Assembly: GCA_049274895.1 (NCBI GenBank)
Contig: JBASTM010000011.1
Location: 2,011 to 66,010 of the forward strand
Direction of reading: 5' to 3'
DNA: 64,000 bases
Source: Minisyncoccia bacterium
GTDB lineage: Bacteria > Patescibacteriota > Minisyncoccia > JACQLN01
Of this stretch, positions 15,385 to 63,740 are shown one piece after another. Position 1 is the stretch's first letter. Each line of letters starts with the position of its first letter. The notes under the pieces are model-generated. The model ran no database searches and had not been told where the DNA came from. It saw only the letters and a program-made list of their open reading frames with translations. The translations under genes and the position numbers were made by a program.

Positions 15385-16785
15385 CTAGCGTCCCAGGCCG
15401 GCCAGGACGATATTCACAGTCTTGAGGATGATGCCCACATCAAATATAAATGAGCGATTTTTAAGGTAGTAAAAGTCGTAAGCCAGTTTCTCGCGGGTAT
15501 CTTCCACCGAAGAGCCGTAGGTGTAGTTTATCTGGGCCCAGCCCGTGAGGCCCGGCTTAACTAAGTATCTACGGTCGTAAAAAGGGATTTCTTTGGTCAA
15601 AAGCTCGTGAAACTCCGGCCGCTCGGCCCGCGGCCCCACAAAAGACATCTCCCCTTTTAAGATGTTAATAAGCTGGGGCAGTTCGTCTAAACGGGTTTTA
15701 CGCAGCAGCCGCCCCACTTTGGTTATTCTGGCATCATTGGGGGTGGTCCACTGGGCCCCGCCCGCTTCGGCATCGGTGCGCATGGTCCTAAACTTGACCA
15801 GTGTAAAAGACCGACCCTGGCGGCCCACCCGAACTTGTTTATAAAAAACCGGGCCGCTGTCTTCCAGTTTGGTCAAAACAGCAACCAAAACACCCAAGGC
15901 CGCAGACGGAATAAAAAGAGCCAAAACTACCCCAAAATCCAAAACCCTTTTGACGCCCTCATAAAAAGTCCGCCGACCCGAGGCGAAATTGTTCAAAAAC
16001 CAAACGTGATCCACGTTGTTAAGGTCAACCTTGCGCCAGACCCTTTCGCTAAACTTGGAAAGATTGGCCACCTCCACGTGGCCCACGAAATTATAAAGCG
16101 ACGAGGTTAAAGAACTCTGATCCAAAAATTTATCATCTATAATAAAAGCGCGAATGCCTTGACTGTTGACCAAAGATGCAATATCAACCTGGCGCGGCGG
16201 ATTCAAAATCTGCGGCAGGTGTTGATGATGGATTTGATTGGCAAAGGCCTGCTGGGGCCCGACCAAAAAATCAACCTTATAGCCGATCTGCGGGTTTTGG
16301 TTAAGCTTGATGGCTAAAACCGCTCCCCGCTCGTCCCAAGAAACTACGGCGGTTTTCACCAAGAGATTCTTTTTTAAGATGCGGTTGATCTGGCCGCGCC
16401 ACAACACAAACAACAAGGAAAAAACGGCAAAATAAATAAAGAGATTGGTTTTGGGAGCCACCTCCGATGAGCCGGCAAAGTAAAACCATAACACCGCCGC
16501 CAAAAAGTTAACGATTAAAGAACGGGCGAGGCCGCCGTAAAACTCCAAGGTGTTTTTGGCCGAAGTAATTTCGTAGAGGTTATGGATGTAAAAAACCACC
16601 AGCCAAACCAGCATTAGCGGCGTGAAAGCTTGGGCGTGTATGTAAAAAAAATCCGCGGTGGTGTAATTGGAACTGGCCAAGCCCGACACACCGCTGTATC
16701 TTAAATAAACCGTGGCCAACAACGCCAAGTAGAGGAATAAAATATCCCCCATCAAGATGATTATCTTTTTGGCTTGGGCGGGCAT
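15385..16785 (-). CDS. Polyprenyl-phosphate sugar phosphotransferase, the initiating enzyme of glycan assembly (WbaP/bacterial sugar transferase family)
   Basis: 466 aa with N-terminal TM helices. The C-terminal sugar-transferase domain reads ...FYKQVRVGRQGRSFTLVKFRTMRTDAE...DELPQLINILKGEMSFVGPR. Confidence 0.85.
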   Translation of the reverse strand: MPAQAKKIIILMGDILFLYLALLATVYLRYSGVSGLASSNYTTADFFYIHAQAFTPLMLVWLVVFYIHNLYEITSAKNTLEFYGGLARSLIVNFLAAVLWFYFAGSSEVAPKTNLFIYFAVFSLLFVLWRGQINRILKKNLLVKTAVVSWDERGAVLAIKLNQNPQIGYKVDFLVGPQQAFANQIHHQHLPQILNPPRQVDIASLVNSQGIRAFIIDDKFLDQSSLTSSLYNFVGHVEVANLSKFSERVWRKVDLNNVDHVWFLNNFASGRRTFYEGVKRVLDFGVVLALFIPSAALGVLVAVLTKLEDSGPVFYKQVRVGRQGRSFTLVKFRTMRTDAEAGGAQWTTPNDARITKVGRLLRKTRLDELPQLINILKGEMSFVGPRAERPEFHELLTKEIPFYDRRYLVKPGLTGWAQINYTYGSSVEDTREKLAYDFYYLKNRSFIFDVGIILKTVNIVLAGLGR

Positions 16786-16835
16786 AAAATGCAGTTTGTT
16801 TTTATCTATCTATACAACCAAAAACATGGCCCAAA

Positions 16836-16869
16836 GTAACCAAAAACCCCGCTCTTCAGAAGGGCGGGG
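16836..16869 (-). terminator. Rho-independent terminator after the peptidoglycan-binding protein gene
   Basis: Minus strand reads ccccgcccttctgaagagcgggg followed by tttttggtt. Confidence 0.6.
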
Positions 16870-16891
16870 TCTTGATTCATATCTAATAAAA

Positions 16892-18265
16892 CTACTTCTT
16901 CAATATCGCATCTATTTGGGCCTGGATGGCTTTGATTTGATCCGCTATCTGCTGGGCCTGACTAGGCGCTGCTGATGACGGTGCGGCCGGAGCCACATAT
17001 GAAGGAGTTGGCGGGGCTATGGGAGCGCTGACCGAAGAACTGCCCAAAATTTCATTAATCTTTTGCAATGTAGCCGGCCCAACTCTACCCACTGCAGGCA
17101 GACCATACTTGGCTTGGAATTTCTTTACCGCGGCTGTGGTCTTGGGACCGTAGAAGCCGCTCACAGTGCCTTCGGGGTAAATGGTTGGATCTTGGGCTAA
17201 GAGCTTTTGCAAGTCCATAACTTCATCATTTCTAGCACCAGGATTAAGTTCAGAATCTATAGAAACTGATCCGGAAACCACCGGCGCAACCTGTGCGGCC
17301 GAGCCGGATGTGATGCTTTGAATTTGTTGCTGGATAGCTTGAATTTGAGATTGGATTTGATTGGCAGTTCTAGCTTGAACCGACGTTGACGGCGCTGGAG
17401 TTGATATGACTTCGGCTTTAGAACCAAAAACATCATTCAACTTAGCCAATGTAGCCGGCCCAACTCTACCCACTGCGGGCAAACCATACTTGGCTTGGAA
17501 TTTCTTTACCGCGGCCGTGGTCTTGGGACCGTAGAAGCCGCTCACAGTGCCTTCGGGATAAATGGTCGGGTCTTGGGACAAAAGCTCCTGCAGTTTCATA
17601 ACCTCGTCATTACGAGCACCGGGATTAATTTCCTTAGTTAGAACTGGCGCCATACTCACAGATACTGGAGCTGATACGACTGGTGCAACCACGGGGGCCG
17701 TAACAGCTGGAGTTGCTGGTCCAACTGTAGTTGCAGTTGTGGTAGTTGTAGTTTTTGGAGTAGCAGTTGTTGATGTAGTAGTAGTTGTAGTCGTGGTAGG
17801 AGAAGCCGAAGAAGTTGAAGATAATGTACTGGTGGTTGATGATGAACTGCTACTGCTAGAGGAAGACCCGCCTCCGCCGGAAGTGGTAGTACAAGTTGAG
17901 CTACCCGGGGCCACATTCACCGTTTCAGAGGAACCGGACGGCAGAGACACGGAAAGCACCGACGAAGAACTGCCGCATTCCAAACTAAACACGGTCTTGT
18001 CACCCCTATAAGTAAAATTCTTTTTATCGGCAGAAGTTAAATTGATGGTTGACCCTGACGCCAAGGTTATATCCATGTCCGCAGCATTCACAACCAATGT
18101 CTCTACCTTACCATTGGTAACGGTTAAATCTATAGTGTTGCCGCCAACGGTAACACTTAGGGTACCCCCACTAGAAATAACCACATCATCAAAAGCCGCA
18201 GAAACAACCAGAGGCAGTACTAACCCCAACAACACCCCGACCCTCAAAATGTTTTTAAGTTTCAT
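16892..18265 (-). CDS. Secreted protein with two peptidoglycan-binding (PG_binding_1-like) domains and a Ser/Thr-rich linker
   Basis: 457 aa with a signal peptide. A roughly 65-aa module ...PGARNDEVM.LQ.LL.QDPTIYPEGTVSGFYGPKTTAAVKKFQAKYGLPAVGRVGPATL... is duplicated. An S/T low-complexity block is present. Confidence 0.7.
   Translation of the reverse strand: MKLKNILRVGVLLGLVLPLVVSAAFDDVVISSGGTLSVTVGGNTIDLTVTNGKVETLVVNAADMDITLASGSTINLTSADKKNFTYRGDKTVFSLECGSSSSVLSVSLPSGSSETVNVAPGSSTCTTTSGGGGSSSSSSSSSSTTSTLSSTSSASPTTTTTTTTSTTATPKTTTTTTATTVGPATPAVTAPVVAPVVSAPVSVSMAPVLTKEINPGARNDEVMKLQELLSQDPTIYPEGTVSGFYGPKTTAAVKKFQAKYGLPAVGRVGPATLAKLNDVFGSKAEVISTPAPSTSVQARTANQIQSQIQAIQQQIQSITSGSAAQVAPVVSGSVSIDSELNPGARNDEVMDLQKLLAQDPTIYPEGTVSGFYGPKTTAAVKKFQAKYGLPAVGRVGPATLQKINEILGSSSVSAPIAPPTPSYVAPAAPSSAAPSQAQQIADQIKAIQAQIDAILKK
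17041..17260. repeat. Intragenic direct repeat, copy 1 (about 90% identical to 17421-17640)
   Basis: Near-identical roughly 200-nt DNA blocks encode the duplicated PG-binding module. Confidence 0.8.
17421..17640. repeat. Intragenic direct repeat, copy 2
   Basis: See copy 1. Confidence 0.8.
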
Positions 18266-18296
18266 AAGTAGAGCGTGTTAAAGAAATAAGAGAGCG

Positions 18297-19034
18297 TTAT
18301 TTGGGGCATTCAACCACATCCACGCTCAGAAAATCAGCAGCTCCTCCAACAGCTCCAACGGCATTAGCCACGGAATCAGCCATTATGGAAATACAATTGG
18401 CACCATTTGATGATCTGAGTATTATTTGGCCACCATTTCCGCCTTCACCGGCTATATAAACTGTAGCAGTCGCATTCTGGGCCGCACCCACTGCACCCAC
18501 AGTCAAGGAAGGATCAATGGTGAGCGTGCCTGTAACATCGGCATCGGCCCAAGTCGTTGTACCTATAGACACAGCACCGCTTAAACCGTCAACCAATAAA
18601 GAGCTCGAAGCTATACCAAAACCGTATCTAACGGAAGACGTAGCGGTTGTAGATGTAGCCGTGATGTAGGAAGTATAGATAAAGTCGCCGATTATGGCGC
18701 CTCCGGCAACAGCCAAACCGCCATCGTTATTAACATCACTCGACACAGTGGTGGTACCTATGCCAAACCGACCCATGGTCCACGAAGGATTGGTAGAAGT
18801 CGATTTAAAGTAATCAGCATGGACAAAACCTTCCACGATAGCCTCACCTTTAACGGCTAAGGCCGCACCGGGGGTAGTCGTGGCTACTGCCACACTGGAC
18901 GTGTTAATGGTTGTGGCACCGTAAGTCACCACCGCAACCATAAAAACTGACAGAAAGACCGCGGCAAAGGAAACAAAAAACCTCTGCTTATTATTTATAA
19001 TTTTAGTCATTTTTTTAAGATTCTCTGGAAACAA
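18297..19034 (-). CDS. Hypothetical exported Thr/Gly/Ala-rich surface protein
   Basis: 245 aa with an N-terminal TM/signal and low-complexity T/G/A-rich beta-type sequence. Confidence 0.4.
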   Translation of the reverse strand: MFPENLKKMTKIINNKQRFFVSFAAVFLSVFMVAVVTYGATTINTSSVAVATTTPGAALAVKGEAIVEGFVHADYFKSTSTNPSWTMGRFGIGTTTVSSDVNNDGGLAVAGGAIIGDFIYTSYITATSTTATSSVRYGFGIASSSLLVDGLSGAVSIGTTTWADADVTGTLTIDPSLTVGAVGAAQNATATVYIAGEGGNGGQIILRSSNGANCISIMADSVANAVGAVGGAADFLSVDVVECPK

Positions 19035-19092: not shown

Positions 19093-19124
19093 CTAAAAAC
19101 GAAAAACCTGTAAAGACAGGTTTT
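19093..19124 (-). terminator. Rho-independent terminator after the O-antigen ligase-TPR gene
   Basis: Minus strand reads aaacctgtctttacaggttt followed by ttcgttttt. Confidence 0.6.
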
Positions 19125-19159
19125 CCACAGCTATTAAAGCCTGTATGGTTTTTTGGGTT

Positions 19160-21406
19160 TTATCTGTCTATTTCTCCATTCCTTATCTCTTCGATAAAAG
19201 CCTCACCCTGGACTTTGAACCCCGGCGCCAGTTCTATGACTTTTTGCAGTTCTTCAATGGCTTTTTTGTCCTCAAAAATCTTTACGTATATTGAAGCCAG
19301 GTTCAACCGATATTGAACATTAGCAGGCTCCTGTTTAACCAGCATTTCCCAAATCCGGGCAACCTTTCCAAAATCACCTATAGCGGCGTAAGCGTTTATG
19401 TATTTAGTATCCGCTACCACCTCGGTTCCAAAATGCTTTTTTAACAAAGCATCCGCTTCCGACGATTTCCCTGAAAAAATAAGTATAACCGAGTAATTAT
19501 GAACGGCATCCGGAAACTCCGGCGCCAAGTCATAAGCTTTTTTAAGAGCCCTTAAGGCCAAATCCTCCTCGCCGGCCTTAAAATAAGCCTCGCCCAACAA
19601 AAAATAAAACTGTTGCCTTTTATCCGAAACGGTTAAACCTTCTTCTGCGGCCAAAACAGCGCTCGCCGGATCCTGATTCAGACCGTGAAGCGTCGAAAGA
19701 AAAGCCTTGGCCCTGACGTCGTATGGAAAATCCTCGGCTTGCTTCTTTATTTCTTTGAGAGCGAAATCTATAAATTCCGCTTTATCTTCTTCGGATGTAG
19801 CTGGGTCCTGATCTATCCTGTCGGCGTATTGAGCTAGTTGTTCCCTGATTTCGGGCGTGCCGAAAGTGTTGTAACTCAAACCTTTTTCTAGAGCCTTTAT
19901 ACCCTCACCCAGATCGCGCACCCGGCTGCCGTCGGCCGAATAGGTAACCATTCTTAAAGAATTGATTATGCTTTTTGAAGCTAATATCGGCTTCACGTTA
20001 AAGAAATAGATCGAAAAAACTAGCGTGGGTACCACCACAGCCATAACACCCCAGCGCAAACCGGAAGGAATTTCTACTTTAGAATTATTTTCAACAACAG
20101 GTACCGCCGAAGTTTCTCTATTTTGAGTCCAAAGACTGTGCAAATAAGCCAAAACGGCGAAAAAAAACATATAGCTTGTGAAATTATCGAAGACAAAAAT
20201 ATTATTCACGAAATAAGCGGCCAGCATTCCCGTAAAAACTCCCGAAACACCAACTGTAAAAATATTTTTTTTAGCCAGATCGTATAAAATCTTAAGCGCC
20301 GAAAAGAATAAACTTAAATAGGCCAAAAGGCCAACTAGTCCAGTAGACGTCATCCAGTCAAAAAAAACATTGTGAGCCCGGTCGAACCACGGCTCTTGGC
20401 GCCACAACTGCGGATCGTAATACTTGGAAAATATGTAAACGAAACTTTCCGGACCCCAACCCAAAACCGGGCGGTCCTGCCAAGCTTCGTAAGCCATGCG
20501 CCAAATTATAAAACGGGATTGGGTGGTTGTTTCGCTTAAAGAAATATCGGCGAACCTAGTTAAAACATCGCTATTTCGCACCAAAGACGAATCCTTGATC
20601 GATATAAAAACAACTGGAACAGCCGCAAGAAGAATTAAAAAAACCACGGCTAGTTTGCGAATCTTTCCTTTTTTCCATATAACACCGACGACCAGACCAA
20701 CCGCAAGACCAATTAACAACCCCAGCATAGCTCCACGAGTAGCTGTCTTATAGACGATGAAAAGTTCGAAAATTACCGCGACCGCCAAACCGATCCTTAG
20801 CCAAACATTTCTTCCGCGGGACTTAAGCAAGAAAAACAAAATTAAAAAAATATGGAAAACAAGATATATAGCCAAATAAGTGGCATTGCCCATGGTCCCG
20901 TCCAAACGTTCATCGCCTTGATGGACGTCCAATACACCTAGAAACTGGAATAAGGCATAAAAAGACGCGGCCAGGCTGGCCAAAATGGAAACGCTCCAAA
21001 ATTTAACCCAATCCCGTTCTCGCCTAAATACGCTACCTAAAATAATAAAATAAACGAAATAATGCCAATGGGCCCAAAATCCTTCCATACGTTCAAAGCC
21101 GGACCAAAAACTTTTATAAGGAGAAATGCTGAATATAGTGGCCAAAAATATGGCAGCCGCGAGGGTAATATAGCTGTAAAGAATCGCGGAAGAGCGGGGT
21201 CGGTACTTAGGATCAGCTAAAATAAGCCACAACCAAAAAACAAAAAGGATTTCTATGATAATCCTAAAAATAAAGTTCCTTCCGGTTATAAACGGAAAAT
21301 ATAAAGACTTAGTGACAACCAAAGGCAGAACCGGAACGATAAAGAGACCGATTTTTATGATCCAGCTTACGGAATTTTTATTCAGCATACTTTGTTTGTA
21401 TAGCAT
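19160..21406 (-). CDS. O-antigen ligase (Wzy_C) family membrane protein fused to C-terminal TPR repeats
   Basis: 748 aa with about 12 TM helices and a Wzy_C-like loop (WGPESFVY...RAHNVFFDWMTSTG). Several TPR-like repeats occupy the C-terminal 300 aa. Confidence 0.7.
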   Translation of the reverse strand: MLYKQSMLNKNSVSWIIKIGLFIVPVLPLVVTKSLYFPFITGRNFIFRIIIEILFVFWLWLILADPKYRPRSSAILYSYITLAAAIFLATIFSISPYKSFWSGFERMEGFWAHWHYFVYFIILGSVFRRERDWVKFWSVSILASLAASFYALFQFLGVLDVHQGDERLDGTMGNATYLAIYLVFHIFLILFFLLKSRGRNVWLRIGLAVAVIFELFIVYKTATRGAMLGLLIGLAVGLVVGVIWKKGKIRKLAVVFLILLAAVPVVFISIKDSSLVRNSDVLTRFADISLSETTTQSRFIIWRMAYEAWQDRPVLGWGPESFVYIFSKYYDPQLWRQEPWFDRAHNVFFDWMTSTGLVGLLAYLSLFFSALKILYDLAKKNIFTVGVSGVFTGMLAAYFVNNIFVFDNFTSYMFFFAVLAYLHSLWTQNRETSAVPVVENNSKVEIPSGLRWGVMAVVVPTLVFSIYFFNVKPILASKSIINSLRMVTYSADGSRVRDLGEGIKALEKGLSYNTFGTPEIREQLAQYADRIDQDPATSEEDKAEFIDFALKEIKKQAEDFPYDVRAKAFLSTLHGLNQDPASAVLAAEEGLTVSDKRQQFYFLLGEAYFKAGEEDLALRALKKAYDLAPEFPDAVHNYSVILIFSGKSSEADALLKKHFGTEVVADTKYINAYAAIGDFGKVARIWEMLVKQEPANVQYRLNLASIYVKIFEDKKAIEELQKVIELAPGFKVQGEAFIEEIRNGEIDR

Positions 21407-21434: not shown

Positions 21435-22148
21435 TTATATTTCACCCATCATTCTTTCGGCCAAAAGCCAATCTGCCGGGCTATCTATGTTAACACTGTA
21501 TTTTTCGGCCATGGGATAAATAACCGCTTTGTCGCCGTAGAAATTGGGATTGTCCGGATGGGATAATAGTTCGGTTTTGAACAAATAAATCGCGCCGTTA
21601 TGGTAATAGGTTTTTTTTGGAAAACTTTGGCGTCTGGGGATGCGTTTATGCAACGGCTCTCGGCTGGTTAAAAGCTTAGCCCAACCGGTTTCGTCTTCCG
21701 CCACCGCCCAATAGGGGCTAAAGTGGCCGGGAATCTCCGACATACTGACCACCGAATCCGCTCCTCTAGTTATAAAAAGCTCTAAGGCCTCTTTAATATG
21801 CCAAGTTTGGCGCAGCGGCGCCGTGGGCTGAAGCAACATAACAGCATCGGGCTGGTAATCTTGATTTTCTTTAAGCCAGGAAACGGCATGTTGGAGTACC
21901 GGCAGATGGGGCGTGCCGTCCTGGGCTAAATCCGCCGGGCGCATAAACGGCACATCCACGCCGTATTTCTTGGCCACCTCGGCGATTTCGGTGTCGTCGG
22001 TGCTTAAGATAATGCGGTCAAAAACACCCGACTCCTGCGCAGTTTTTATGGTATAGGCAATCAAAGGCTGTCCACATAAATCGTTTATGTTTTTGCGGGG
22101 TATGCCTTTGGACCCGCCCCGAGCAGTAATAATTCCGAGTATTTTCAT
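21435..22148 (-). CDS. Acylneuraminate (nonulosonic acid) cytidylyltransferase, NeuA/CMP-sugar synthetase family, paralog 1
   Basis: 237 aa with MKILGIITARGGSKGIPRKNI, the CTP_transf_3 signature. Confidence 0.75.
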   Translation of the reverse strand: MKILGIITARGGSKGIPRKNINDLCGQPLIAYTIKTAQESGVFDRIILSTDDTEIAEVAKKYGVDVPFMRPADLAQDGTPHLPVLQHAVSWLKENQDYQPDAVMLLQPTAPLRQTWHIKEALELFITRGADSVVSMSEIPGHFSPYWAVAEDETGWAKLLTSREPLHKRIPRRQSFPKKTYYHNGAIYLFKTELLSHPDNPNFYGDKAVIYPMAEKYSVNIDSPADWLLAERMMGEI

Positions 22149-22165: not shown

Positions 22166-23413
22166 TCATAAATCGTTAAATGATTTTTGAATATCTAAAT
22201 CAACTGTAGCAAGTATACTGGCCATATTGGAAGCAGTGTTCCCCCAACCGAACATATCGCTTTTTGGGTACTGACCGTGACTGATCTGAAACGCCATCGC
22301 TTTTTTAAGCGAATCGGCGTTACCTTCAACTTCTAAAACATTCTCACCCTTTTCCCTTTTATTCTGCCGCAAACCCGCTAAAACAACGGGTGTGCCAAAA
22401 TAAGCGCCCTCCCGAATAAAACTGGAGGAATTGCCTACGGCGCAGGCGGTATTTTTTAGGTATTTGTAAAAATCGTCCGGGTGGAGATGTTTGGTAAAAA
22501 AAACATCTTGGGGTTTTTCGTTTTCTAGCCAATTTCTGACGGCACTACCCAGCACATCAGAACCGGCGTCAATGTTGGAACCCAAAATTACTTTTGGCCA
22601 GGGCAGTTCTTTTAAGGCCAAGATGAGATTGGTGACCAGTTTGATATTCCCCTCTTGAGAGTCGGTAGCCACGGGATGGACCAAAACTAAGATATAGGGT
22701 TGATTTACATTCAAGCCAGGAAAAACTCTTGGCGGGATCGTAAAATCAATCTTGGCCACAGCGTCTATGGCTGGTGAACCCACCGCAAAAACTTTACCGG
22801 GATCCTCGCCCATTTGGATCACCCGCCGTCGGCTGGATTCGGTGGAAGTAAAATGAATATGGGCCAGTTTGGTAATGGCATGCCGGATACTTTCATCAAT
22901 TGTTCCCGAAACATCGCCGCCTTCATTGTGGGCTATGGGAACGTTCAGGTAAGAAGCCGCGATGGCCACCGCCAACATTTCAAAACGGTCGGCGTTCACA
23001 AAAACAATGTCGGGTTTTATTTTTTTGATTTCCTCGACTAATCTTTCTACGCCCAAACCCACTGTTTTAGCCATAGTTTCCGATTTGCCCCCGTCAAAAA
23101 ATATAGGCGCGTATGATTCTATTTCAAAACCGTCTTTGATTAAATTCTGGGCCAAAAAATCGTTTCTAAAAACATAATCTTGTCCGGCCCACGACCTTAG
23201 ACGCGCCAACACATACCACGGCCCGGCGGCCACCCACGATCGCGGCCGGCTGTGGGCGATATTCTTAAAAAAATAGCCGTAAGCCGCCGGCACGCCCACG
23301 ATTATTTTCAAATCCAAAGCTGGATGATTTTTAATGGCGTCAAGCACCGGCCGCAACCGGCCGTAATGCGCCCGGTTAAAAATCGGCACCAGAATTTTTC
23401 TTTTGGGATTCAT
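22166..23413 (-). CDS. UDP-N-acetylglucosamine 2-epimerase (hydrolysing), NeuC-like
   Basis: 415 aa with the H-x-E-G-G catalytic motif (IAHNEGGDVSG). The epimerase_2 fold carries a Trp-rich N-terminal insertion. Confidence 0.6.
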   Translation of the reverse strand: MNPKRKILVPIFNRAHYGRLRPVLDAIKNHPALDLKIIVGVPAAYGYFFKNIAHSRPRSWVAAGPWYVLARLRSWAGQDYVFRNDFLAQNLIKDGFEIESYAPIFFDGGKSETMAKTVGLGVERLVEEIKKIKPDIVFVNADRFEMLAVAIAASYLNVPIAHNEGGDVSGTIDESIRHAITKLAHIHFTSTESSRRRVIQMGEDPGKVFAVGSPAIDAVAKIDFTIPPRVFPGLNVNQPYILVLVHPVATDSQEGNIKLVTNLILALKELPWPKVILGSNIDAGSDVLGSAVRNWLENEKPQDVFFTKHLHPDDFYKYLKNTACAVGNSSSFIREGAYFGTPVVLAGLRQNKREKGENVLEVEGNADSLKKAMAFQISHGQYPKSDMFGWGNTASNMASILATVDLDIQKSFNDL

Positions 23414-25560: not shown

Positions 25561-25592
25561 TCAAAGTATCCTGAGATGGCGATCGCCATCTC
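25561..25592. terminator. Palindromic hairpin with GCGATCGC core, a paralog of the 15011-15040 element
   Basis: atcctgagatggcgatcgccatctcaggat is a perfect palindrome. Confidence 0.55.
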
Positions 25593-25624
25593 AGGATACA
25601 AAAACAAGGGCGAAGTAAAAACAA

Positions 25625-37341: not shown

Positions 37342-37475
37342 TGAGTTTCTCCTTTTTTGTATTACAACTGGTTAATTTTAAGGTACCATCCAGATAATAA
37401 CAACTCTGGCTGTCAATATCAACAACCTTAAACCAAGTAAAAAAACCCACCCAGATTACGGGCAGGTTTATAAAA

Positions 37476-53396: not shown

Positions 53397-53472
53397 GACC
53401 GAATTCTCTAGTATCATATATAAAACCATACATACAGCCAAAATGTTATAAAAGACTGTAACTGTAAAATCG

Positions 53473-56959: not shown

Positions 56960-58018
56960 TTAAATTCTTGAAAATTCCTTAGAAAGAATTTCTATCAAAA
57001 GAGCTAGACTATGTTTCTCGACGGCTATCTCTCTAAGTTCCTTTCCCATTTCCTGTTTCAACTCCTTAGATAAACACAAAAGTTTTATAATCTTTTTCGA
57101 CAAATCGTCGGCGTCATTTTCGTTAAAAAGGCATGTTTCTTTTAATTTAGGCGGGAGAATCCGATCAAATAGTTTATTGGAAACTAAAATAGGCGTCTCG
57201 CAGGCCATGGCCTCGACAACGGCTTTATCGAAACTTCCCGTGGCCGTTAAATTAACGAATACGCCGCTCCTCACGTAAACAAGTGGAGTATCAATGTTCC
57301 TTACCGGTTTCCCAAAAACAACTTTGCCGTCAGCCGTCAAATCAGCGGCCATATTTTTTATTTTTTCCAAATAAACCCGGTTACTTTCGGAAACAGCGGC
57401 GCCAACCACATTAACGACAAAAGAAATATTTTGTCTGTCTAAAATACGGGTAGCCGCCAAAAGACATTCCAAATTTTTTATGGGTGAAACCCGACCAAGA
57501 TACAATACCGAATTTTCTCTACGAACCGAATCCTGATTTCTCTTAAAAAAATCTGTGTCTATACCCACCGGCATCAGGCGTGTTTTTTTAAACCCGGAAA
57601 CGAAAGAAAATGGCGAGGTGCAAAAAACCCGATGCGACAAAAAAATACCTAATTTGGTGGTTAGCGAACCAAGCGGATGGTTGTACCATAAAAACACCTG
57701 TTTTCCTCCTATTTTCCAAAACAAACCGCCCAACAAAATATATAACGGGTTCATGTGCACAAAAACCGAGTTGTAGTCTTTTCTCAGAATCCAAATATAT
57801 TTGTAAAAAAGAAATACTCGCCTCCAACGGCTAGATCCATATTCCTTTCTTAAAGAAAAAACCCGAACATTAACAGGGAGTTCGGTTCGACCTTGATAAA
57901 GACAGATCACGTTGATTCTATCTACCTTTCTAGATAACTCTTCTATCCAGCGGTGGTAAACACCTAAAACGTCGTCGTTTTTATCTACCTTTTGGGTTAT
58001 AAACAATAATTTGATCAT
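56960..58018 (-). CDS. GT4 glycosyltransferase
   Basis: 352 aa with RVSPIKN...VVEAMACETPILVS. Confidence 0.75.
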   Translation of the reverse strand: MIKLLFITQKVDKNDDVLGVYHRWIEELSRKVDRINVICLYQGRTELPVNVRVFSLRKEYGSSRWRRVFLFYKYIWILRKDYNSVFVHMNPLYILLGGLFWKIGGKQVFLWYNHPLGSLTTKLGIFLSHRVFCTSPFSFVSGFKKTRLMPVGIDTDFFKRNQDSVRRENSVLYLGRVSPIKNLECLLAATRILDRQNISFVVNVVGAAVSESNRVYLEKIKNMAADLTADGKVVFGKPVRNIDTPLVYVRSGVFVNLTATGSFDKAVVEAMACETPILVSNKLFDRILPPKLKETCLFNENDADDLSKKIIKLLCLSKELKQEMGKELREIAVEKHSLALLIEILSKEFSRI

Positions 58019-58047: not shown

Positions 58048-58929
58048 TTAGATAAGCTCCTTGTAGTGTTTCTTGTACCAGCTTACCGTCCGTTTCATTC
58101 CCGCCTCCAATGGGGTAAACTTAAACTTGCCGATCCACTTATACAATGTACTCGTATCTCCTTGTATGACTGCCTTTGAAGTCTCACCAGCTCTCATTGG
58201 TAAGAATTCAATCTTAGCTTTAAGTATATCTGCTATTAATTTTGCAACCTTGATCAACGGCTCGCCCTTACCACTACCGGAATCGATAACTTCTGTGGCT
58301 ACTTTATCCAATTCTAAAGCACGAACTAAAATCTCAGCTGTATCACCGGCGTAAACCAAGTCCACCAACTGACTGCCATCGCCGTAAACCTGAAGCGGTT
58401 GGCCTTGCAAAGCCCTGATTATAAAACTGGGCGCGAATTTGCGAACAGGCTTGAACTTCTGACCTTCTCCATACACATTAAAACCTCTGACAACATTTAT
58501 ATGCGTGCCAAATTCTCGGTTATATAAAAAGGCAAAATCTTTGGCCGTCCTCTTAGTTATAGCATAAGGATTATGCCAAACATCGGGCAAGGTTATGTAA
58601 ACGCATTTTTTGCCGTATTTTTTAACCGCTTCGAAAACGTTCAATGTTCCTAAAATATTGACTTCGTTGGTTTCGATAATATGTTGAAGTGTTTCGGCTG
58701 TACCTAAAATCCCAGCCAGATGTATTACCCCATCACATTCAAAAACAGCTTGATCCACGGCATTTTTGTCGCGAATATCGGCCACAAAATTTTGAACCCC
58801 TGGTGCTGATTTAATAACCTTGCGATCGAAACTCACCACTTGGCAACCACGATCTAATAATTTTTGTATAACATGGCTACCGATAAAACCTTGGCCTCCC
58901 GTCACTAAAACTTTTTTTAAATTACTCAT
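58048..58929 (-). CDS. NAD-dependent nucleotide-sugar epimerase/dehydratase (SDR family)
   Basis: 293 aa with VLVTGGQGFIGSHV and YxxxK. Confidence 0.8.
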   Translation of the reverse strand: MSNLKKVLVTGGQGFIGSHVIQKLLDRGCQVVSFDRKVIKSAPGVQNFVADIRDKNAVDQAVFECDGVIHLAGILGTAETLQHIIETNEVNILGTLNVFEAVKKYGKKCVYITLPDVWHNPYAITKRTAKDFAFLYNREFGTHINVVRGFNVYGEGQKFKPVRKFAPSFIIRALQGQPLQVYGDGSQLVDLVYAGDTAEILVRALELDKVATEVIDSGSGKGEPLIKVAKLIADILKAKIEFLPMRAGETSKAVIQGDTSTLYKWIGKFKFTPLEAGMKRTVSWYKKHYKELI

Positions 58930-60052
58930 AATTTTTTTGAGTTAAAGCGTTTGTGAGCGCTTGATAATATAACTTTAAATAAACCTCTTTGGTAATAAAA
59001 CCAACCGCCATGGCTAGCGATTGTTTTTTAAATATTGCCAGTTTACCCGCATCAGAAGCCAATTCTATCAATTTATCGGCCAATTGTCTATAATCTCCAA
59101 CCAGGACCACAAAACCATTTTTGCCGTTTATGATGGTTTCGCCGGCTGGGGCGACATCGGTCATCACGACCGGCAAACCCGAAGCCATAGCCTCCGCCGG
59201 CGAACGCGCCCCGCCTTCGTAATTAGAAGTTAATAAAAACAAGTCAGCTGTCCTGTAATAGGATATTATGTCATCCGACCAGTTTTCCATGACAACATCC
59301 TCTTGTAATTTGAGGCCTAAGATCTGTGACTTAATATTTGTGTGTTCGGGACCAGAGCCGACAATAAGTAAAAGGGCTTGAGGGCATACCTTAACCACCT
59401 CGGCCATCGCTCTAATTGCCAAACCAATATTTTTTTCTCTGGCTAACCGGGTAGCCATAAGAATTATAAATCTGTCCGGGTATTTTCTGCGCAAGTCAAT
59501 CTTGACCGCACCGGTTTTAAATCTCTCCATATCGTAAACTATAGGCAAAACTGTAATCTTGGAGCTTAGGACTTGAAGTTCGAAGCACAAAGAATCCTTG
59601 ATGCGTTCCGAAACCACACGAAGCCCATCAGCCTTTTTAACCAACCACTTACCTAAAACGACTTTGATTTTGTTCCTTACGGACTCTTGTTGAAAATACA
59701 GACTCAAAAAATCTGTGTGGACCTGGAGTTGTAAGGGTAAATTAAACTTTTTCTTTAGTAAGTAAGCAATTAGACCAAGTTCAAACGGGTCCTGTGAGGT
59801 AATTACCAACCGGGAAATTGAAACACGGGGGAATTGAGAAATTAATTTAGCACCGGTTCTAAAGATTTTTATATAACCATTGGCCGGGTAAATAAAAACG
59901 TTTCCAAAATTTTGATTTTTGGTCTTTGATTTTTGGTTTTTAACAATAATATGTAGTTCCTCCACCAGCTTTCCGTAATCTCTCATCCTCTGCCGAACTT
60001 CCGATCCCTCAATAAATATATTCTCGTCGGTTGATAGCATTAAGACTTTCAT
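58922..60052 (-). CDS. GT4 glycosyltransferase
   Basis: 376 aa with YEGGARSPAEAMASGLPVVMT. Confidence 0.8.
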   Translation of the reverse strand: MKVLMLSTDENIFIEGSEVRQRMRDYGKLVEELHIIVKNQKSKTKNQNFGNVFIYPANGYIKIFRTGAKLISQFPRVSISRLVITSQDPFELGLIAYLLKKKFNLPLQLQVHTDFLSLYFQQESVRNKIKVVLGKWLVKKADGLRVVSERIKDSLCFELQVLSSKITVLPIVYDMERFKTGAVKIDLRRKYPDRFIILMATRLAREKNIGLAIRAMAEVVKVCPQALLLIVGSGPEHTNIKSQILGLKLQEDVVMENWSDDIISYYRTADLFLLTSNYEGGARSPAEAMASGLPVVMTDVAPAGETIINGKNGFVVLVGDYRQLADKLIELASDAGKLAIFKKQSLAMAVGFITKEVYLKLYYQALTNALTQKNYE

Positions 60053-60702
60053 TATTTTTCCAAAACAAAAAACAACCTGTAACCGTCCAAGACCGGCCTG
60101 ATGATTTTAATCTTCTTAAAATGACTTTTAAGTATCTTTTTAACCTTACCTAATCGCCAGTTATAACCGTCTATTTCCCAATAATGTTGCCCTGATATTT
60201 TTATGCCGCCGAATTTTAACGGTATCCTTAGAAACAAACTTAAAAGATTACTCCTTAAAAAAGTCCTGATGCCGGGAAACTTAAAAATAATTTCCCAACC
60301 GGTGGAACGGTACGGCAAAGAGATAACGGCGTATCGGGAACTGACACGCTTGATCTCCAAAAGATCTTTCTCAAACTCACCGAAAGGCAAGTGCTCCAGA
60401 ACCTCAAAAGCGGTTACCACCCGAAAGGAATCGGCCCCGAAAGGCAACTCTCTTATATCAGCCACATGGTCGGGGTTGAGTTTAGGGTCAAAATCGCAGG
60501 TAACCACGCTAAAACCGGCCGTTTTTAAGCAATTAGAGGCCATCCCCGAACCCACACCCACCTCCAAAATGCCGTCTTTGGCCTTGTCTTTAACCAACTG
60601 CGAGACTAAGTCTATTTGATAAAAATACGAAATAAACCGTTCCAAGGTGTTGTACTTGGGCTTAAAATAATGCTCTTTGTTTTTTTGGGGTTTTAATTCC
60701 AT
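60052..60702 (-). CDS. Class I SAM methyltransferase
   Basis: 216 aa with ILEVGVGSGMAS. Confidence 0.7.
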   Translation of the reverse strand: MELKPQKNKEHYFKPKYNTLERFISYFYQIDLVSQLVKDKAKDGILEVGVGSGMASNCLKTAGFSVVTCDFDPKLNPDHVADIRELPFGADSFRVVTAFEVLEHLPFGEFEKDLLEIKRVSSRYAVISLPYRSTGWEIIFKFPGIRTFLRSNLLSLFLRIPLKFGGIKISGQHYWEIDGYNWRLGKVKKILKSHFKKIKIIRPVLDGYRLFFVLEK

Positions 60703-62942
60703 TTTTGAATCAAATTTACCAGCTCTCGAATCGTGTTTTCTATAGAGAATTTTTGAGCTTTGGTTTTGGCTTTTTCAGAAATACTCTCTCTAAAATTTTT
60801 ATCTTTACCCAGCTTATCTATGGCATCCAAAAATTGTTTTTTATCGTTCGGCTCCACCAATATGCCATCCACTCCGTTTTCTATAATCTCCGAAAGATTG
60901 CCGATATTGGTGGCAATAACCGGCAAACCCACACTCATCGCTTCTACTATTTGAAATGAAAAACTTTCAAAGTGGGTGTTAAGAACGAATACCTCGGCTT
61001 CTTGTAATTTCCGCATGAGTTCTTCTCTTGGAATCTGACCCAAAAGTTCCACCCGATCTTGTAATTTGAGATTTGAGATTTGAGATTTGAGATTGGTATG
61101 CTCCGGTCCATCTCCGGCGATAACTAATTTCCACTCCGGCAAGTCCCGCATCAATTCTACCAAAAAACCAAAACCCTTCCACGGCACCAATCTCCCAGCC
61201 GATATGATAACTTTTGGTTTAGAGTGAGTAGCTGGTAGTGAGTAGCTGGTAGTCAAGTCTATACCATTATAGATAACCTTAATCTTGTTGGGATTTCTGA
61301 CCCATTTTGAAACCAACTGTCGAAAATACTTACTGGGCGTAATTACTATATTGGCTTGATCCACCACAAACCTTTGAACCCAACGCAAAAACTCCACTTT
61401 CCAGCCGTATTGTTTGTTTTGAAAATCGTCTATGGAATCTTTGACTCCGAAACGCTGGGTTGATTGCTCCCAAACGTAATCGCCCGGTACTCTTATTATA
61501 AACTTTTTCCGGCATAATTTGGCGGCGAGAAGCGACGGCAAGCCGACGCTGATGGTGTCTTGGGCTAAAACCCAATCGTGCCCGGGGCACAACCGTAACG
61601 ATTTTATAAAATAAAAAAAATGGCGCAGCCCTTTCGGCCAGTTTCTGACGGCCCGAAACGGCAACACGGTTACGCTAATACCGCATTGAGGCAGCTCTCG
61701 CTCCAATAAAGCGGCGTAAGTGGCCGGACCGCCGACCTCCGGCGGATAAATGCCGGTGGCGAGCAATAGTTTTTTAGTGAGTAGTGAGTAGTGAGTAGTG
61801 AGTAAACCGAAAATTTTATTCATTTTATGGGCTATCGGATTCCAAGAATATTTTTCTTTAACCAGCTTCTGGCCATTCTCGGATAACCGGCGGGACAGCT
61901 CGGGATTGTTTGCTATTCTTGTTATCTTTTCGGCTAAATCTTTGGGATCATCAACTCGGCAAAATAGTCCATTGTCATCATCTTTAAGAAAGTCGGGAAT
62001 GCCCCCAACCGAAGTTCCGATGACCGGAAGGCCGGCTGCCATAGCTTCCAAAAATGAATTGCCCAAACCCTCCGAACGCGAGGGACGTACAAAAACATCG
62101 GCTTGGGATAAATACTCTGGAATCAAATCGGGATCAACCTGGCCGACGAATTTGACCCTGTCGGCAACATCCAAATCTTTGGCCAGTTTTTCCAACTTTA
62201 ATCTATCCGGACCATCGCCAACGATAATAGTTTGTAGTTGGTAGTTGGTAGTTGGTAGTAAAGAAATGGCGCGGATGAGAGTATCAATCCCATTTTTATA
62301 AACCAACCGCGAAGTGGTAATGATTGTATAAGTCTTATCAGACTTATGGGTCTTATTGGTCTTATATGAATCTAAATTAACCCCGTTGGGTACAACCTCC
62401 ATGGGGCAGGTTGCCCCATGCCTACGGGCAAAATCGGCAAGGTACCCGCTAATGGCCTGGATGTGATCAGCATTCTTAAATATCAGCCGCCATAATGGGT
62501 AAAATACGCCTACTCGCTTGAGTATATGCTGTTCCGAATCGCCTTCCTGCAAGGTCAAAAGCGTTGGAACCTTTGGATGCAAAAATTTGAAAAATAACCC
62601 CGCCAGACCGGCATAAGCGGCCATAACGGACCAAACAATCTGATAGTTATTTTGACGGTGAAGTTTTCTAGCTAACAACACGGCCTTTAAGGGGTATGTT
62701 AATTTGGTTCCACTGACTCTGTAGACATTCACCTTACCCATGACCTCCTTGACTTCATGACTTCTACTGAATTGCAGAGATATTAGATCGAAATTAAAAT
62801 CACCGCTCAAGCGGCTGGTAATCTCTTTAACGGCTATCTCGGCGCCCCCGACCATAGGAAAATAGGCCAGAGAAAAAATCAAAACCCGCGGCTTCTGATG
62901 GGTCATAACATTAAAACCATCGGCGCGCGGGTTAAATAACAT
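60693..62942 (-). CDS. Double GT4 glycosyltransferase (two complete GT4 modules fused) containing four heptanucleotide repeat tracts
   Basis: 749 aa. The EX7E-type motifs are SRSEGLGNSFLEAMAAGLPVIGT and HFESFSFQIVEAMSVGLPVIAT. Confidence 0.8.
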   Translation of the reverse strand: MLFNPRADGFNVMTHQKPRVLIFSLAYFPMVGGAEIAVKEITSRLSGDFNFDLISLQFSRSHEVKEVMGKVNVYRVSGTKLTYPLKAVLLARKLHRQNNYQIVWSVMAAYAGLAGLFFKFLHPKVPTLLTLQEGDSEQHILKRVGVFYPLWRLIFKNADHIQAISGYLADFARRHGATCPMEVVPNGVNLDSYKTNKTHKSDKTYTIITTSRLVYKNGIDTLIRAISLLPTTNYQLQTIIVGDGPDRLKLEKLAKDLDVADRVKFVGQVDPDLIPEYLSQADVFVRPSRSEGLGNSFLEAMAAGLPVIGTSVGGIPDFLKDDDNGLFCRVDDPKDLAEKITRIANNPELSRRLSENGQKLVKEKYSWNPIAHKMNKIFGLLTTHYSLLTKKLLLATGIYPPEVGGPATYAALLERELPQCGISVTVLPFRAVRNWPKGLRHFFYFIKSLRLCPGHDWVLAQDTISVGLPSLLAAKLCRKKFIIRVPGDYVWEQSTQRFGVKDSIDDFQNKQYGWKVEFLRWVQRFVVDQANIVITPSKYFRQLVSKWVRNPNKIKVIYNGIDLTTSYSLPATHSKPKVIISAGRLVPWKGFGFLVELMRDLPEWKLVIAGDGPEHTNLKSQISNLKLQDRVELLGQIPREELMRKLQEAEVFVLNTHFESFSFQIVEAMSVGLPVIATNIGNLSEIIENGVDGILVEPNDKKQFLDAIDKLGKDKNFRESISEKAKTKAQKFSIENTIRELVNLIQKWN
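61064..61094. repeat. (ATTTGAG)x4 heptamer tandem repeat inside the double-GT4 CDS
   Basis: Reads atttgagatttgagatttgagatttgagatt and encodes NLKSQISNLK. Confidence 0.85.
61224..61251. repeat. (GTGAGTAGCTGGTA)x2, which is two heptamer pairs, inside the double-GT4 CDS
   Basis: Reads gtgagtagctggtagtgagtagctggta. Confidence 0.85.
61777..61804. repeat. (GTGAGTA)x4 heptamer tandem repeat inside the double-GT4 CDS (inter-module linker)
   Basis: Reads gtgagtagtgagtagtgagtagtgagta and encodes LLTTHYSLL. Confidence 0.85.
62234..62259. repeat. (GTAGTTG)x3.7 heptamer tandem repeat inside the double-GT4 CDS
   Basis: Reads gtagttggtagttggtagttggtagt and encodes LPTTNYQLQT. Confidence 0.85.
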
Positions 62943-63740
62943 CTACTTTAACCGGTCAATTTCCTCGGCTACACCCGGCTGGTCGGGCGAAAGTTTAAGC
63001 ACTTCTTGATAGTATTTGAGAGCGTTAGTTTTATCGCCCTCATCACGGTAATAGGTAGCCAAAGCCAACATTAAATTAACATCTTTGATTACACTTATAC
63101 CCTCCAATAAAATCTTGGGCGCTTCCGATTTTTTAGCCGTATAAACATTCTTATAGAAATCGGCGAAACCAATATAATAACCTACCTGGTAAGGATCATT
63201 GGCTATAGCTTTCTTAAAGTTAAACTCGGCTCTGGCATTATCGTGCAAATAGAACCCGTAGAGATTGCCTAAGTTAGCAAAAGAAAGAGCGTTGGCCGGA
63301 TACAAAATGCCGGCATATTCCCAAGCGTCGCGCGCGCCCTCAAAATCGTTAAAAAACTTTTTTATAACTCCCACCGCGATCCAATCATCCACTCCGGCTG
63401 GACCAGTAGCATCCGCCGCTAAAACCACGGCCAACACCTTTAAATCTCCTCGTTGTTTTTCTATTAGTTCTTGCGGTGCGCTAAAACCTTTACCAAAACG
63501 AATTTCACCAATAGGCCGTCCCAAGTAAATAGGAACTTGGGGATTAGCTGAACCAGGAGAATAATAAGATTCTTTATTTACCATTGCGTTATCTACGGAA
63601 CTAGTGTTATTTAGTTCAGGAATATTATTGTTAGAAGTTGGTACATCGGGAGTCTTCAACAGTTGATTCGCACCAACCACAACAACTATAGCCGAGACAA
63701 GACCTAAAACTACTAGTATTTTTCTGTTTATTATAAACAT
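62943..63740 (-). CDS. TPR-repeat protein with N-terminal TM anchor
   Basis: The start is placed at MFIINRKILVVLGLV. The ORF-track start is 63848. TPR-like repeats occupy the C-terminal half. Confidence 0.6.
   Translation of the reverse strand: MFIINRKILVVLGLVSAIVVVVGANQLLKTPDVPTSNNNIPELNNTSSVDNAMVNKESYYSPGSANPQVPIYLGRPIGEIRFGKGFSAPQELIEKQRGDLKVLAVVLAADATGPAGVDDWIAVGVIKKFFNDFEGARDAWEYAGILYPANALSFANLGNLYGFYLHDNARAEFNFKKAIANDPYQVGYYIGFADFYKNVYTAKKSEAPKILLEGISVIKDVNLMLALATYYRDEGDKTNALKYYQEVLKLSPDQPGVAEEIDRLK

Follow-up and report, generated by a model that had tools for sequence, protein, structure and literature searches.

In Tannerella forsythia, TagB-domain proteins were shown by knock-outs to be needed for the transfer of pseudaminic or legionaminic acid derivatives onto ManNAcA (PMC5420450), and SpsB of Bacillus subtilis has been discussed in like manner (PMC7439481). 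Here we analyze a 64,000-nucleotide stretch of contig JBASTM010000011.1 from a Minisyncoccia bacterium (the window), in which positions 15385–63740 (48,356 bp, ~98% coding) form a locus of 38 open reading frames (ORFs; g1–g38, Table 1) that combines genes for nonulosonic acid (NulO) synthesis with four genes of a TagF-like GT-B family. By analogy, the closest described chemistry is that of the T. forsythia S-layer O-glycan, in which ManNAcA bears a terminal NulO and which also has a uronamide and, as Posch et al. reportedly found in 2011, O-methyl sugars. Minisyncoccia is a class of the Minisyncoccota, i.e. of the Patescibacteria or candidate phyla radiation (CPR). CPR bacteria are ultrasmall and mostly episymbiotic, their surface is the site of attachment to the host, and the chemistry of that surface is essentially unknown. 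A first-pass annotation, made from the letters and ORFs of the window, had rightly guessed a CPR-like origin: from end to end, the g25 product shows 100% identity with a protein from a Minisyncoccia metagenome-assembled genome (MAG). It had also predicted a surface glycoconjugate with NulO synthesis, 3′-phosphoadenosine-5′-phosphosulfate (PAPS)-dependent sulfation and multiple methylation, all of which the gene families support, on a glycerol-phosphate backbone, which they do not. We consider it probable that this is a Wzx/Wzy-type surface-glycan locus making an acidic, sulfated, O-methylated, NulO-rich heteroglycan, with the TagF-like proteins as NulO transferases.

Gene families were assigned by Pfam and NCBIfam profile searches of the locus ORFs, which reproduced nearly all of the earlier family calls. 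The NCBIfam models that pass their curated cut-offs are TIGR03025, TIGR03568, TIGR01536, and TIGR03026. Five ORFs have no Pfam match, namely 18297–19034 and four (25625–26782, 38792–40663, 40660–42555, and 55558–56955) that were resolved by other means. The calls of two NeuA, one NeuC and two NeuB proteins, one without a SAF domain, were upheld and none of these genes was reassigned. When aligned with g7, the SAF-less synthase g8 shows the same HC..YP, SDHS, and E(K/R)HF motifs, with its metal-binding His motifs intact, and its orthologue in the related locus L014 is 82% identical, from which we take g8 to be a real second synthase. No DegT aminotransferase or N-acetyltransferase occurs among the locus genes by NCBIfam annotation, and for this reason the NeuC-NeuB-NeuA set is most simply read as making a sugar of Neu5Ac or Kdn type. 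The GT-B protein g9 belongs to a family of 227 representatives (E ≤ 0.001), of whose aligned members 11 of 49 match Glyco_tran_28_C, and a PDB search with the family profile picks up the nucleotide-sugar motif of UGT glycosyltransferases (E = 2e-5). Assignment of g9 as PseG was rejected, since it has no NCBIfam match and only a GT1/GT28-like nucleotide-sugar-binding fold is supported. A 985-aa protein of another organism (P0333), in which a g9-like protein is fused to a CBS-NDP-sugar dehydrogenase resembling g12, links g9 and g12 functionally; the best named relatives of g12 are UDP-ManNAc dehydrogenases.

The four TagF-like paralogues (g16, g22, g29, and g31) are 26–37% identical over their full length, and the predicted structure of the family has a GT-B fold (pLDDT 91.3). 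All four match PF04464, mostly in their C-terminal parts, with E values from 3e-15 to 2e-5 and scores of 56, 36, 27, and 24 bits against a cut-off of 22.1, two of them barely over it; the best stretches begin at profile positions 109–260 of 367 and cover ~30–70% of the model. Support for the glycerol-phosphate backbone of the first-pass annotation is confined to these weak, mostly C-terminal matches; the NCBI product name, “CDP-glycerol glycerophosphotransferase family”, points the same way. Single-sequence searches of the PDB with g16, g9, g20, and g32 returned nothing usable, and a profile of the four paralogues gave only a weak C-terminal match to TarL. With the profile of the wider family, TarL is the sole significant PDB sequence relative (E = 5e-5) and Cps3D is matched marginally by a sub-profile (E = 0.008); these links are limited to the G-x-P-x-x-D and “AP” motifs. 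Among 67 aligned members of the family there is no invariant histidine, while an S-W-D motif is invariant just after an N-domain β strand. TagF and Cps3D carry W-H-G, a motif that was located in PDB sequences by a peptide search; PDB entry 3l7j carries a mutation of its histidine, H444. SWD appears to correspond to WHG, which would put an invariant Asp where TagF has its catalytic His.

The genomic partners of the family point away from glycerol phosphate. A scan with one genome per species yielded 48 related loci, against which the window proteins were then searched; nearly all are from Patescibacteria, with a few from Chloroflexota and Bacteroidota, one from a Planctomycetaceae MAG, and two from MAGs labelled Gammaproteobacteria. 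Of the 48 loci, 25 have a homologue of NeuA or NeuB in the flanks that were fetched (15 of 26 if only loci of 15 kb or more are counted); it lies within 2 kb of the TagF-like gene in 17/48 and directly adjacent to it in 8/48. The co-occurrence extends to the non-CPR homologues (Bacteroidota and Chloroflexota; L045, L049, and L050), with NeuB/NeuC/NeuA, a 2-hydroxyacid dehydrogenase, and AsnB beside the TagF-like genes of L045 and L050. CMP-NulO genes are the consistent partners. A tblastn search for TagD, with a B. subtilis query sequence whose quality makes the negative somewhat weaker, gave no significant match in the window (best E = 2.7) or in the 48 loci (best E = 0.95). The Pfam results for the 38 locus genes include no ABC transporter (TagGH-type exporter), TagA/TagB primer set, or LytR_cpsA_psr (LCP ligase) family. 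Together with the apparent loss of the histidine and the T. forsythia precedent, the missing TagD and the NeuA/NeuB partners lead us to regard the TagF-like proteins as likelier NulO transferases than glycerol-phosphate polymerases. For the donor itself, we put the chance of CMP-NulO at about even, hold a CDP-polyol or sugar-phosphate donor to be unlikely, and leave what remains to some other donor. The annotation “CDP-glycerol glycerophosphotransferase” in CPR genomes is therefore probably no sign of teichoic acid.

A sulfation module is encoded by g14 and g25. The first-pass annotation had recognized g25 as a PAPS synthase fusion; its ATP sulfurylase and APS kinase stand, but the description was incomplete, as an extra pyruvate-kinase barrel leads the protein. 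The g25 product has 930 aa, of which residues 3–318 form the pyruvate-kinase catalytic barrel, without the C-terminal regulatory domain; the motifs RxNxSH, DT, K-I-E, RGD, and ATN are present and are invariant in 45 fusion relatives. The triple-fusion architecture occurs in more than 100 clusters at 90% identity, and those with a named source are almost all from Patescibacteria; a 750-aa form lacking the APS kinase also exists. We found no paper describing a pyruvate-kinase/sulfurylase fusion in the literature searched. In all five other contexts examined (L001, L003, L052, L053, and L054), the fusion lies in a polysaccharide locus beside one or more sulfotransferase genes, with a CysQ-type phosphatase next to the fusion in 2/5 and NeuB/NeuC/NeuA within 10 kb in 2/5; the window itself showed no CysQ-type PAP phosphatase. 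By gene content, sulfated glycan loci of this kind appear to recur in CPR, accompanied by NulO genes in those two cases. The earlier remark that the predicted combination of groups is unusual for any bacterium needs qualifying, since sulfotransferase, PAPS synthase fusion, and NeuB/NeuC/NeuA recur together in two of the five contexts. The earlier statement that the combination is undescribed for CPR-like organisms agrees with the literature searched, where no paper links Patescibacteria to nonulosonic acids or describes their sulfotransferases.

In L054 (a 368-kb contig), the fusion at 10001–12259 is without APS kinase and is flanked by six sulfotransferase genes, Wzx, Wzy_C, and a Wzz/GGDEF protein; the flanks look like a heavily sulfated polysaccharide locus. 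In L001, a related sulfation/NulO locus from CPR, a Capsule_synth (KpsC/KpsS-like) gene (7515–9029) and a gene for an 851-aa protein with a faint YfhO match (13773–16328) stand in place of the TagF-like and GT-C genes of the window, which suggests interchangeable transferase cassettes.

The assembly machinery comprises the primer g1, the Wzy_C-TPR protein g4, the flippase candidate g32, five GT4 modules (one protein carrying two), and two GT2 modules. A 749-aa protein with the same Wzy_C-TPR architecture as g4 adjoins Bac_transf and Wzx in L052. The earlier naming of a Wzx holds in part: g32 has no direct Pfam, NCBIfam, or PDB match, but three of its seven homologues match PF01943 (best E = 3e-12). 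The ArnC-like GT2 g17 aligns with the ArnC model over its full length (143.6 bits, under the equivalog cut-off), and also matches the PgfS, AglJ, and PpgS models. Two GT-C-like membrane paralogues had been proposed, and g20, which like g21 has no Pfam match, gives a confident GT-C fold model (pLDDT 91.6) with PglB (E = 5e-7), STT3, DPY19, AftA, and ArnT as top Foldseek matches (probability 1.0, TM-score 0.42–0.49). The 56 homologues detected for g20 are all unnamed or “hypothetical”; residues D53, R63, and E64 after TM1 are near-invariant in this family, with D53 and E64 at least 90% conserved. A GHMP kinase shares a locus with the GT-C family, without being adjacent to it, in L006, L018, L030, L034, and L046. 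The combination of g17 with g20/g21 would fit the familiar pairing of a lipid-sugar synthase with a GT-C enzyme for glycosylation outside the membrane. Modification is further represented by six S-adenosylmethionine (SAM)-dependent methyltransferase domains and one B12-radical-SAM enzyme (g18).

In the pathway that we propose, g1 would prime polyprenyl phosphate, and the five GT4 modules together with the methyltransferase-GT2 fusion would extend the chain on the cytoplasmic face of the membrane. One CMP-NulO supply would run through NeuC, NeuB, and NeuA (g6, g7, and g5), and a second through g8, g11, the 2-hydroxyacid dehydrogenase g10, and g12, with g9 as a GT-B partner. The TagF-like GT-Bs, each working beside a methyltransferase, would transfer NulO from CMP donors to the growing glycan rather than polymerize glycerol phosphate. 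The sulfotransferase g14 would be fed with PAPS by g25, whose pyruvate-kinase domain may regenerate ATP from phosphoenolpyruvate (PEP) and so drive PAPS synthesis, and the AsnB-type g26 would amidate a uronic or ulosonic carboxylate. The candidate flippase g32 would then flip the unit, g4 would polymerize it or ligate it to an acceptor, which may be wall, lipid, or protein (pilin or S-layer), and g17 with g20/g21 would add side-branch sugars outside the membrane from polyprenyl-phosphate donors.

Several points weigh against this proposal, all parts of which are predicted from sequence. Both NeuB and both NeuA proteins pass Pfam cut-offs and fall under the NeuB/PseI and PseF equivalog cut-offs, which makes any naming of the exact sugar tentative, and the non-hydrolysing 2-epimerase that UDP-ManNAcA would require is not evident in the locus. 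Co-location of NeuA/NeuB with TagF-like genes is no proof of the donor, and the closest solved relatives by sequence, TarL and Cps3D, are phosphotransferases. The equivalence of SWD and WHG comes from motif order and secondary-structure context, with no significant alignment; an N-domain sub-profile of the family could not be aligned to TarL or Cps3D across this position. The search for TagD covered the window and the 48 loci, and the gene may lie in another part of the genome. Finally, the promoters and terminators discussed below were called by consensus scans, with promoter numbers near the shuffle expectation.

The limits of the locus had been given accurately: the last gene ends at 15385, and the first most plausibly starts at ATG 63740, which opens a signal-anchor sequence. 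The tight packing that had been noted is also real, with 17 overlaps among the 37 junctions, 13 gaps of 0–30 bp, six of 31–130 bp, and one of 363 bp; exact ATGA overlaps occur at four junctions at longest-ORF coordinates and at two more with the refined starts of g10 (27723) and g31 (54222), the longest ORF of g10 extending to 27831. The count of about 40 genes stands at 38, but not their placement on a single strand, as g30 (53473–54225) and g31 are on the + strand. This pair is not an assembly quirk, because the same divergent arrangement, in which a methyltransferase gene leads into a d-type TagF-like gene on one side and faces away from a c-type gene on the other, is found in L008, L016, and L028. 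In the divergent gap between g29 and g30 (53397–53472, ~76 bp with family-consistent starts), there are overlapping promoter-like sites on both strands. The terminator-like hairpins, the 363-bp gap, and the strand switch argue for several transcription units, and the “single-strand super-operon” of the first-pass annotation is overstated. The locus is doubtful as a single operon and is better described as several apparently co-oriented transcription units plus one conserved divergent two-gene module.

A riboswitch was considered for the 363-bp gap and dropped, as there is no Rfam match even at E ≤ 1. A 60-aa ORF at 37479–37658 (−) lies shortly before the B12-radical-SAM gene; it is preceded by a good Shine-Dalgarno site, repeats DDVSGVL internally, and is followed by a terminator and a promoter-like site. 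It was considered as the precursor of a ribosomally synthesized and post-translationally modified peptide; nothing comparable stands beside the radical-SAM homologue (58% identity) of the NulO locus L047, nor in the other loci. As the ORF is unconserved and the radical-SAM enzyme lies in glycan loci both times (window and L047), the idea was dropped, and the ORF is probably spurious.

Composition bears on whether the region is one system. The AT-richness that had been remarked on is real: mean GC at third codon positions (GC3) drops stepwise from 0.575 in 13 flanking housekeeping genes to 0.49 in locus genes 1–12 and 0.41 in genes 13–38 (Mann-Whitney p = 3e-8). In the nearest relative, L014, the block from g13 to g7 is in the same order at 63–86% identity, but the genes that precede g13 are not the same. 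The 48 loci hold a common set of cassettes in many orders (TagF-like gene with methyltransferase, GT4 runs with Wzx, and GT-C genes with a GHMP kinase in the locus). The L014 block, this reordering, and the GC3 step together suggest a conserved NulO core and a shuffled, lower-GC cassette region. A variable or acquired island, as earlier proposed, is plausible on these grounds.

The same observations bear on a different reading, in which two or more glycan systems lie side by side: a higher-GC NulO core with the primer and Wzy_C-TPR (~15.4–31.6 kb), and lower-GC shuffled cassettes (31.6–63.7 kb) making or decorating another glycan by a GT-C/polyprenyl-phosphate branch, sulfation, and TagF-like/methyltransferase cassettes. 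The GC3 step, the internal terminator-like hairpins and terminator-promoter pair, the break in conservation with L014 at g13, and the variable order of the blocks in related loci are all consistent with it. However, the region has a single primer, Wzx candidate, and Wzy_C protein, which stand at its opposite ends, and other CPR loci also contain PAPS, sulfotransferase, and NulO genes together. The low-GC TagF-like genes would also need CMP-NulO from the high-GC part, should the NulO-rich heteroglycan be the product. We view a division into separate systems as possible, though doubtful.

The acceptor is a further matter, on which we hold a protein-linked oligosaccharide, i.e. a type IV pilin or S-layer O-glycan, to be a tentative option. 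Wzy_C is the family of the PglL/PilO O-oligosaccharyltransferases; g4 would then act as a PglL/TfpO-type enzyme, and one or both of the GT-C proteins might act on protein too. The best NCBIfam match of g4 is “putative O-glycosylation ligase”, the top structural matches of g20 (PglB and STT3) are oligosaccharyltransferases, and the inventory parallels that of the T. forsythia S-layer O-glycan. A type IV pilus set at 1024–7250 (PilT-like and PilB-like ATPases, response regulator, PilO, and PilM) lies on the same strand 8–14 kb off, and bears on a possible role of the locus in pilin glycosylation. Nevertheless, polymerase, ligase, and O-oligosaccharyltransferase are indistinguishable from Wzy_C sequence, the locus itself contains no gene for a pilin or S-layer protein, and ~12 transferases suit a long repeat unit or polymer equally.

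The NulO-rich heteroglycan could also be extended to a more specific form, a phosphate-free, teichulosonic-acid-like polymer in which the CPR-centred offshoot of the TagF superfamily (His to Asp) would supply CMP-NulO transferases or polymerases and the product would be O-methylated and sulfated via a PEP-driven trifunctional PAPS enzyme; we rate this as unlikely. It is likewise unlikely that what the TagF-like enzymes polymerize or attach is glycerol phosphate (or a different polyol or sugar phosphate activated by CDP), to give a teichoic-acid-like phosphodiester polymer decorated with NulO, sulfate, and methyl groups, given the balance of profile matches, motifs, and genomic partners set out above and the finding that TagB-domain proteins can be NulO transferases (PMC5420450).

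Table 1. Genes of the locus and terminator- or promoter-like features, in window coordinates
Feature	Assignment	Position	Strand	Basis and remarks
g1	Priming polyprenyl-phosphate glycosylphosphotransferase, large WbaP/EpsB type, N-terminal transmembrane (TM) block	15385–16785	−	PF02397 (Bac_transf) E = 5e-65; TIGR03025 343 bits, cut-off 295.6; 6 hydrophobic segments
g2	Wall-associated protein, two PG_binding_1 repeats	16892–18265	−	PF01471 E = 1.5e-26; weak peptidoglycan hydrolase and L,D-transpeptidase matches
g3	Single-TM protein	18297–19034	−	No Pfam or NCBIfam match; 1 TM segment
Hairpin	Terminator-like, 13-bp stem and T run	19099–19128	−	Between g4 and g3
g4	Wzy_C (O-antigen polymerase/ligase/O-oligosaccharyltransferase superfamily) with C-terminal TPR	19160–21406	−	PF04932 E = 7e-23, 81.5 bits, cut-off 31.7; TPR families; 11 TM segments
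g5	CMP-NulO synthetase 1 (NeuA/PseF-like)	21435–22148	−	PF02348 (CTP_transf_3) E = 6e-23; TIGR03584 172 bits, below cut-off 205.7
g6	Hydrolysing UDP-HexNAc 2-epimerase (NeuC/NnaA type)	22166–23413	−	TIGR03568 310.7 bits, cut-off 235.9; PF02350
g7	NulO synthase, NeuB and SAF domains	23416–24525	−	PF03102 E = 1e-68 (231 bits); PF08666; TIGR03569 259 bits, below equivalog cut-off
g8	Second NeuB-type synthase without SAF	24522–25499	−	PF03102 E = 4e-43 (148 bits)
Hairpin	Strong, 15-bp stem, 8 GC pairs	25566–25599	−	In 125-bp gap g9/g8
g9	GT-B (GT1/GT28-like) nucleotide-sugar-binding protein	25625–26782	−	No direct Pfam match; family evidence
g10	D-2-hydroxyacid dehydrogenase (glyoxylate/hydroxypyruvate reductase or PGDH-like)	26779–27723	−	PF02826 E = 7e-51; NCBIfam matches all sub-cut-off
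g11	CMP-NulO synthetase 2 (NeuA/PseF-like), 41% identical to g5	27720–28439	−	PF02348 above cut-off; TIGR03584 153 bits
g12	NDP-sugar 6-dehydrogenase, N-terminal CBS region	28441–30165	−	TIGR03026 385 bits, cut-off 189.8; NF040825 and PRK11064 below cut-off
g13	SAM methyltransferase-GT2 fusion	30172–31590	−	Pfam
g14	PAPS-dependent sulfotransferase	31597–32526	−	PF00685 E = 8e-21, 75 bits; PF13469
g15	CE4 polysaccharide deacetylase	32523–33437	−	PF01522 E = 2.5e-28
g16	TagF-like paralogue a	33442–34797	−	Start per NCBI call, 451 aa; longest ORF to 34854
g17	ArnC/GtrB-like polyprenyl-phosphate GT2, C-terminal TM helices	34808–35761	−	PF00535; end-to-end ArnC-model alignment
g18	B12-binding radical-SAM enzyme, probable C- or P-methyltransferase	35785–37341	−	PF04055, PF02310; best NCBIfam Sden_1168 P-methyltransferase model, far sub-cut-off
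Hairpin and promoter-like site	Terminator-like hairpin 37469–37443, then promoter-like site 37422–37394 (10/12, TG)	37394–37469	−	Within 363-bp gap
g19	GHMP sugar kinase (HddA/fucokinase-like)	37705–38685	−	Pfam; NCBIfam matches below cut-off
g20	GT-C-fold membrane glycosyltransferase	38792–40663	−	Family without Pfam coverage; structure model
g21	Paralogue of g20, 33% identity	40660–42555	−	Sequence comparison
g22	TagF-like paralogue b	42533–43897	−	PF04464, paralogy
g23	GT4 glycosyltransferase	43869–44966	−	Pfam
g24	SAM methyltransferase	44947–45930	−	Pfam
g25	Triple fusion: pyruvate-kinase barrel, PUA_2 and ATP sulfurylase, APS kinase	45924–48716	−	PF01747 259 bits; PF01583 155 bits
g26	AsnB-type glutamine amidotransferase, probable carboxylate amidation	48728–50461	−	TIGR01536 376 bits, cut-off 267; Pfam
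g27, g28	Tandem SAM methyltransferases (g27 50461–51315, g28 51282–52052), 58% identical	50461–52052	−	Pfam
g29	TagF-like paralogue c	52059–53396	−	Family-consistent start 53396
g30	SAM methyltransferase, divergent from g29	53473–54225	+	Pfam
g31	TagF-like paralogue d	54222–55571	+	NCBI call, 449 aa; longest ORF from 54186
g32	Wzx-type (MOP) flippase candidate	55558–56955	−	At least 9 TM segments; transitive PF01943 match
Hairpin	Terminator-like	55588–55609	+	After + strand pair g30-g31
g33	GT4 glycosyltransferase	56960–58018	−	Pfam
g34	NAD-dependent sugar epimerase/dehydratase	58048–58929	−	PF01370; best NCBIfam LegB/RmlB-type dehydratase models, sub-cut-off
g35	GT4 glycosyltransferase	58922–60052	−	Pfam
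g36	SAM methyltransferase	60052–60702	−	Pfam
g37	Double GT4 glycosyltransferase	60693–62942	−	PF00534, two stretches, 299 bits
g38	Membrane-anchored TPR protein, first gene of locus	62943–63740	−	TPR families; start and signal-anchor from sequence
Terminator	Upstream boundary, 19-bp stem	63772–63813	−	Belongs to preceding gene; TATAAT-like box, then ATG 63740

Two locus genes, g2 and g3, are unlike glycan-synthesis genes, and g2 probably stands outside glycan synthesis as a peptidoglycan-binding wall enzyme. Upstream, a gene that runs off the window (63864–64000, −) contributes a C-terminal stretch of 45 residues, rich in Asn, Ser, and Asp, and the boundary terminator follows closely. Within its first 15 kb the window has the type IV pilus genes and those for EF-G, ribosomal proteins S7 and S12, an M50 protease, tRNA-Pro, and phosphoglucose isomerase. 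The tRNA-Pro (GGG) at 13375–13446 (−) lies ~2 kb past the downstream end of the locus, with the genes for a DUF7282 protein and phosphoglucose isomerase intervening.

At ~48 kb, the locus would take up a large share of a genome of the ~1 Mb size usual for CPR. Together with the recurrence of related loci across CPR classes, this gives concrete targets for tests of a role in host recognition, phage defence, or immune-like mimicry. The SWD-motif TagF-like transferases, the Pfam-less GT-C family, and the pyruvate-kinase-fused PAPS synthase are enzyme families worth characterizing. If the last is indeed a PEP-driven trifunctional enzyme, it would couple glycolytic PEP directly to sulfate activation, and it could serve for PAPS regeneration in vitro.

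Compared with described systems, the locus is most like the O-glycosylation/NulO cluster of T. forsythia (Tanf_01245 and TFUB4_00887), to which it is likened by description: CMP-NulO genes stand beside TagB/TagF-superfamily GT-B NulO transferases (PMC5420450). A UDP-ManNAc-dehydrogenase-type enzyme, a uronamide (AsnB-type amidation), and O-methyl sugars in one glycan are further points of likeness. In contrast to T. forsythia, the transferases here are four paralogues of a separate, mostly CPR, SWD-motif family, and the locus adds a second NulO synthase/pathway, PAPS-dependent sulfation, a B12-radical-SAM enzyme, and a GT-C branch, whereas Pse/Leg-specific upstream enzymes are absent from it. 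The TagF-like proteins share the G-x-P-x-x-D linker and “AP” motifs with TagF/TarL and with the Cps3D and Bcs3 polymerases, and the leaving group would be CMP either way. They differ from TagF/TarL/Cps3D in the apparent Asp at the WHG His position, in having NeuA/NeuB partners and no CDP-glycerol or CDP-ribitol supply gene nearby, and in their size of ~450 aa, without membrane-association and TPR extensions. A further likeness, at the level of the polymer, is to the actinobacterial teichulosonic acids (Kdn/Pse wall polymers; S. coelicolor SCO4873-4882), which are anionic ulosonic-acid wall glycopolymers of monoderms. The SCO4873-4882 cluster may involve TagF-like enzymes; the papers found name the cluster, not its enzymes.

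The fused ATP sulfurylase, with its PUA domain, and APS kinase on one polypeptide resemble the bacterial Sat-CysC and eukaryotic PAPSS synthases, but g25 bears an N-terminal pyruvate-kinase barrel with invariant catalytic residues, which those lack. The ArnC-like GT2 and the GT-C enzymes with conserved acidic residues after TM1 recall ArnC-ArnT, GtrB-GtrV, CsbB-YfhO, and PglB; unlike these, the GT-C family has no Pfam model, is tandemly duplicated, and recurs with a GHMP kinase, and no small GtrA-type flippase was seen. With Wzx/Wzy O-antigen, capsule, and exopolysaccharide loci the locus shares the primer, cytoplasmic GT4 and GT2 enzymes, a MOP flippase candidate, Wzy_C, and a GC content below that of the core genome, while no chain-length regulator or export machinery was recognized among its genes, Wzy_C is fused to TPR, and the CPR host is monoderm-like. 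Judged by its gene families, the locus is a variation on known Wzx/Wzy-type glycan loci rather than a new kind of system.

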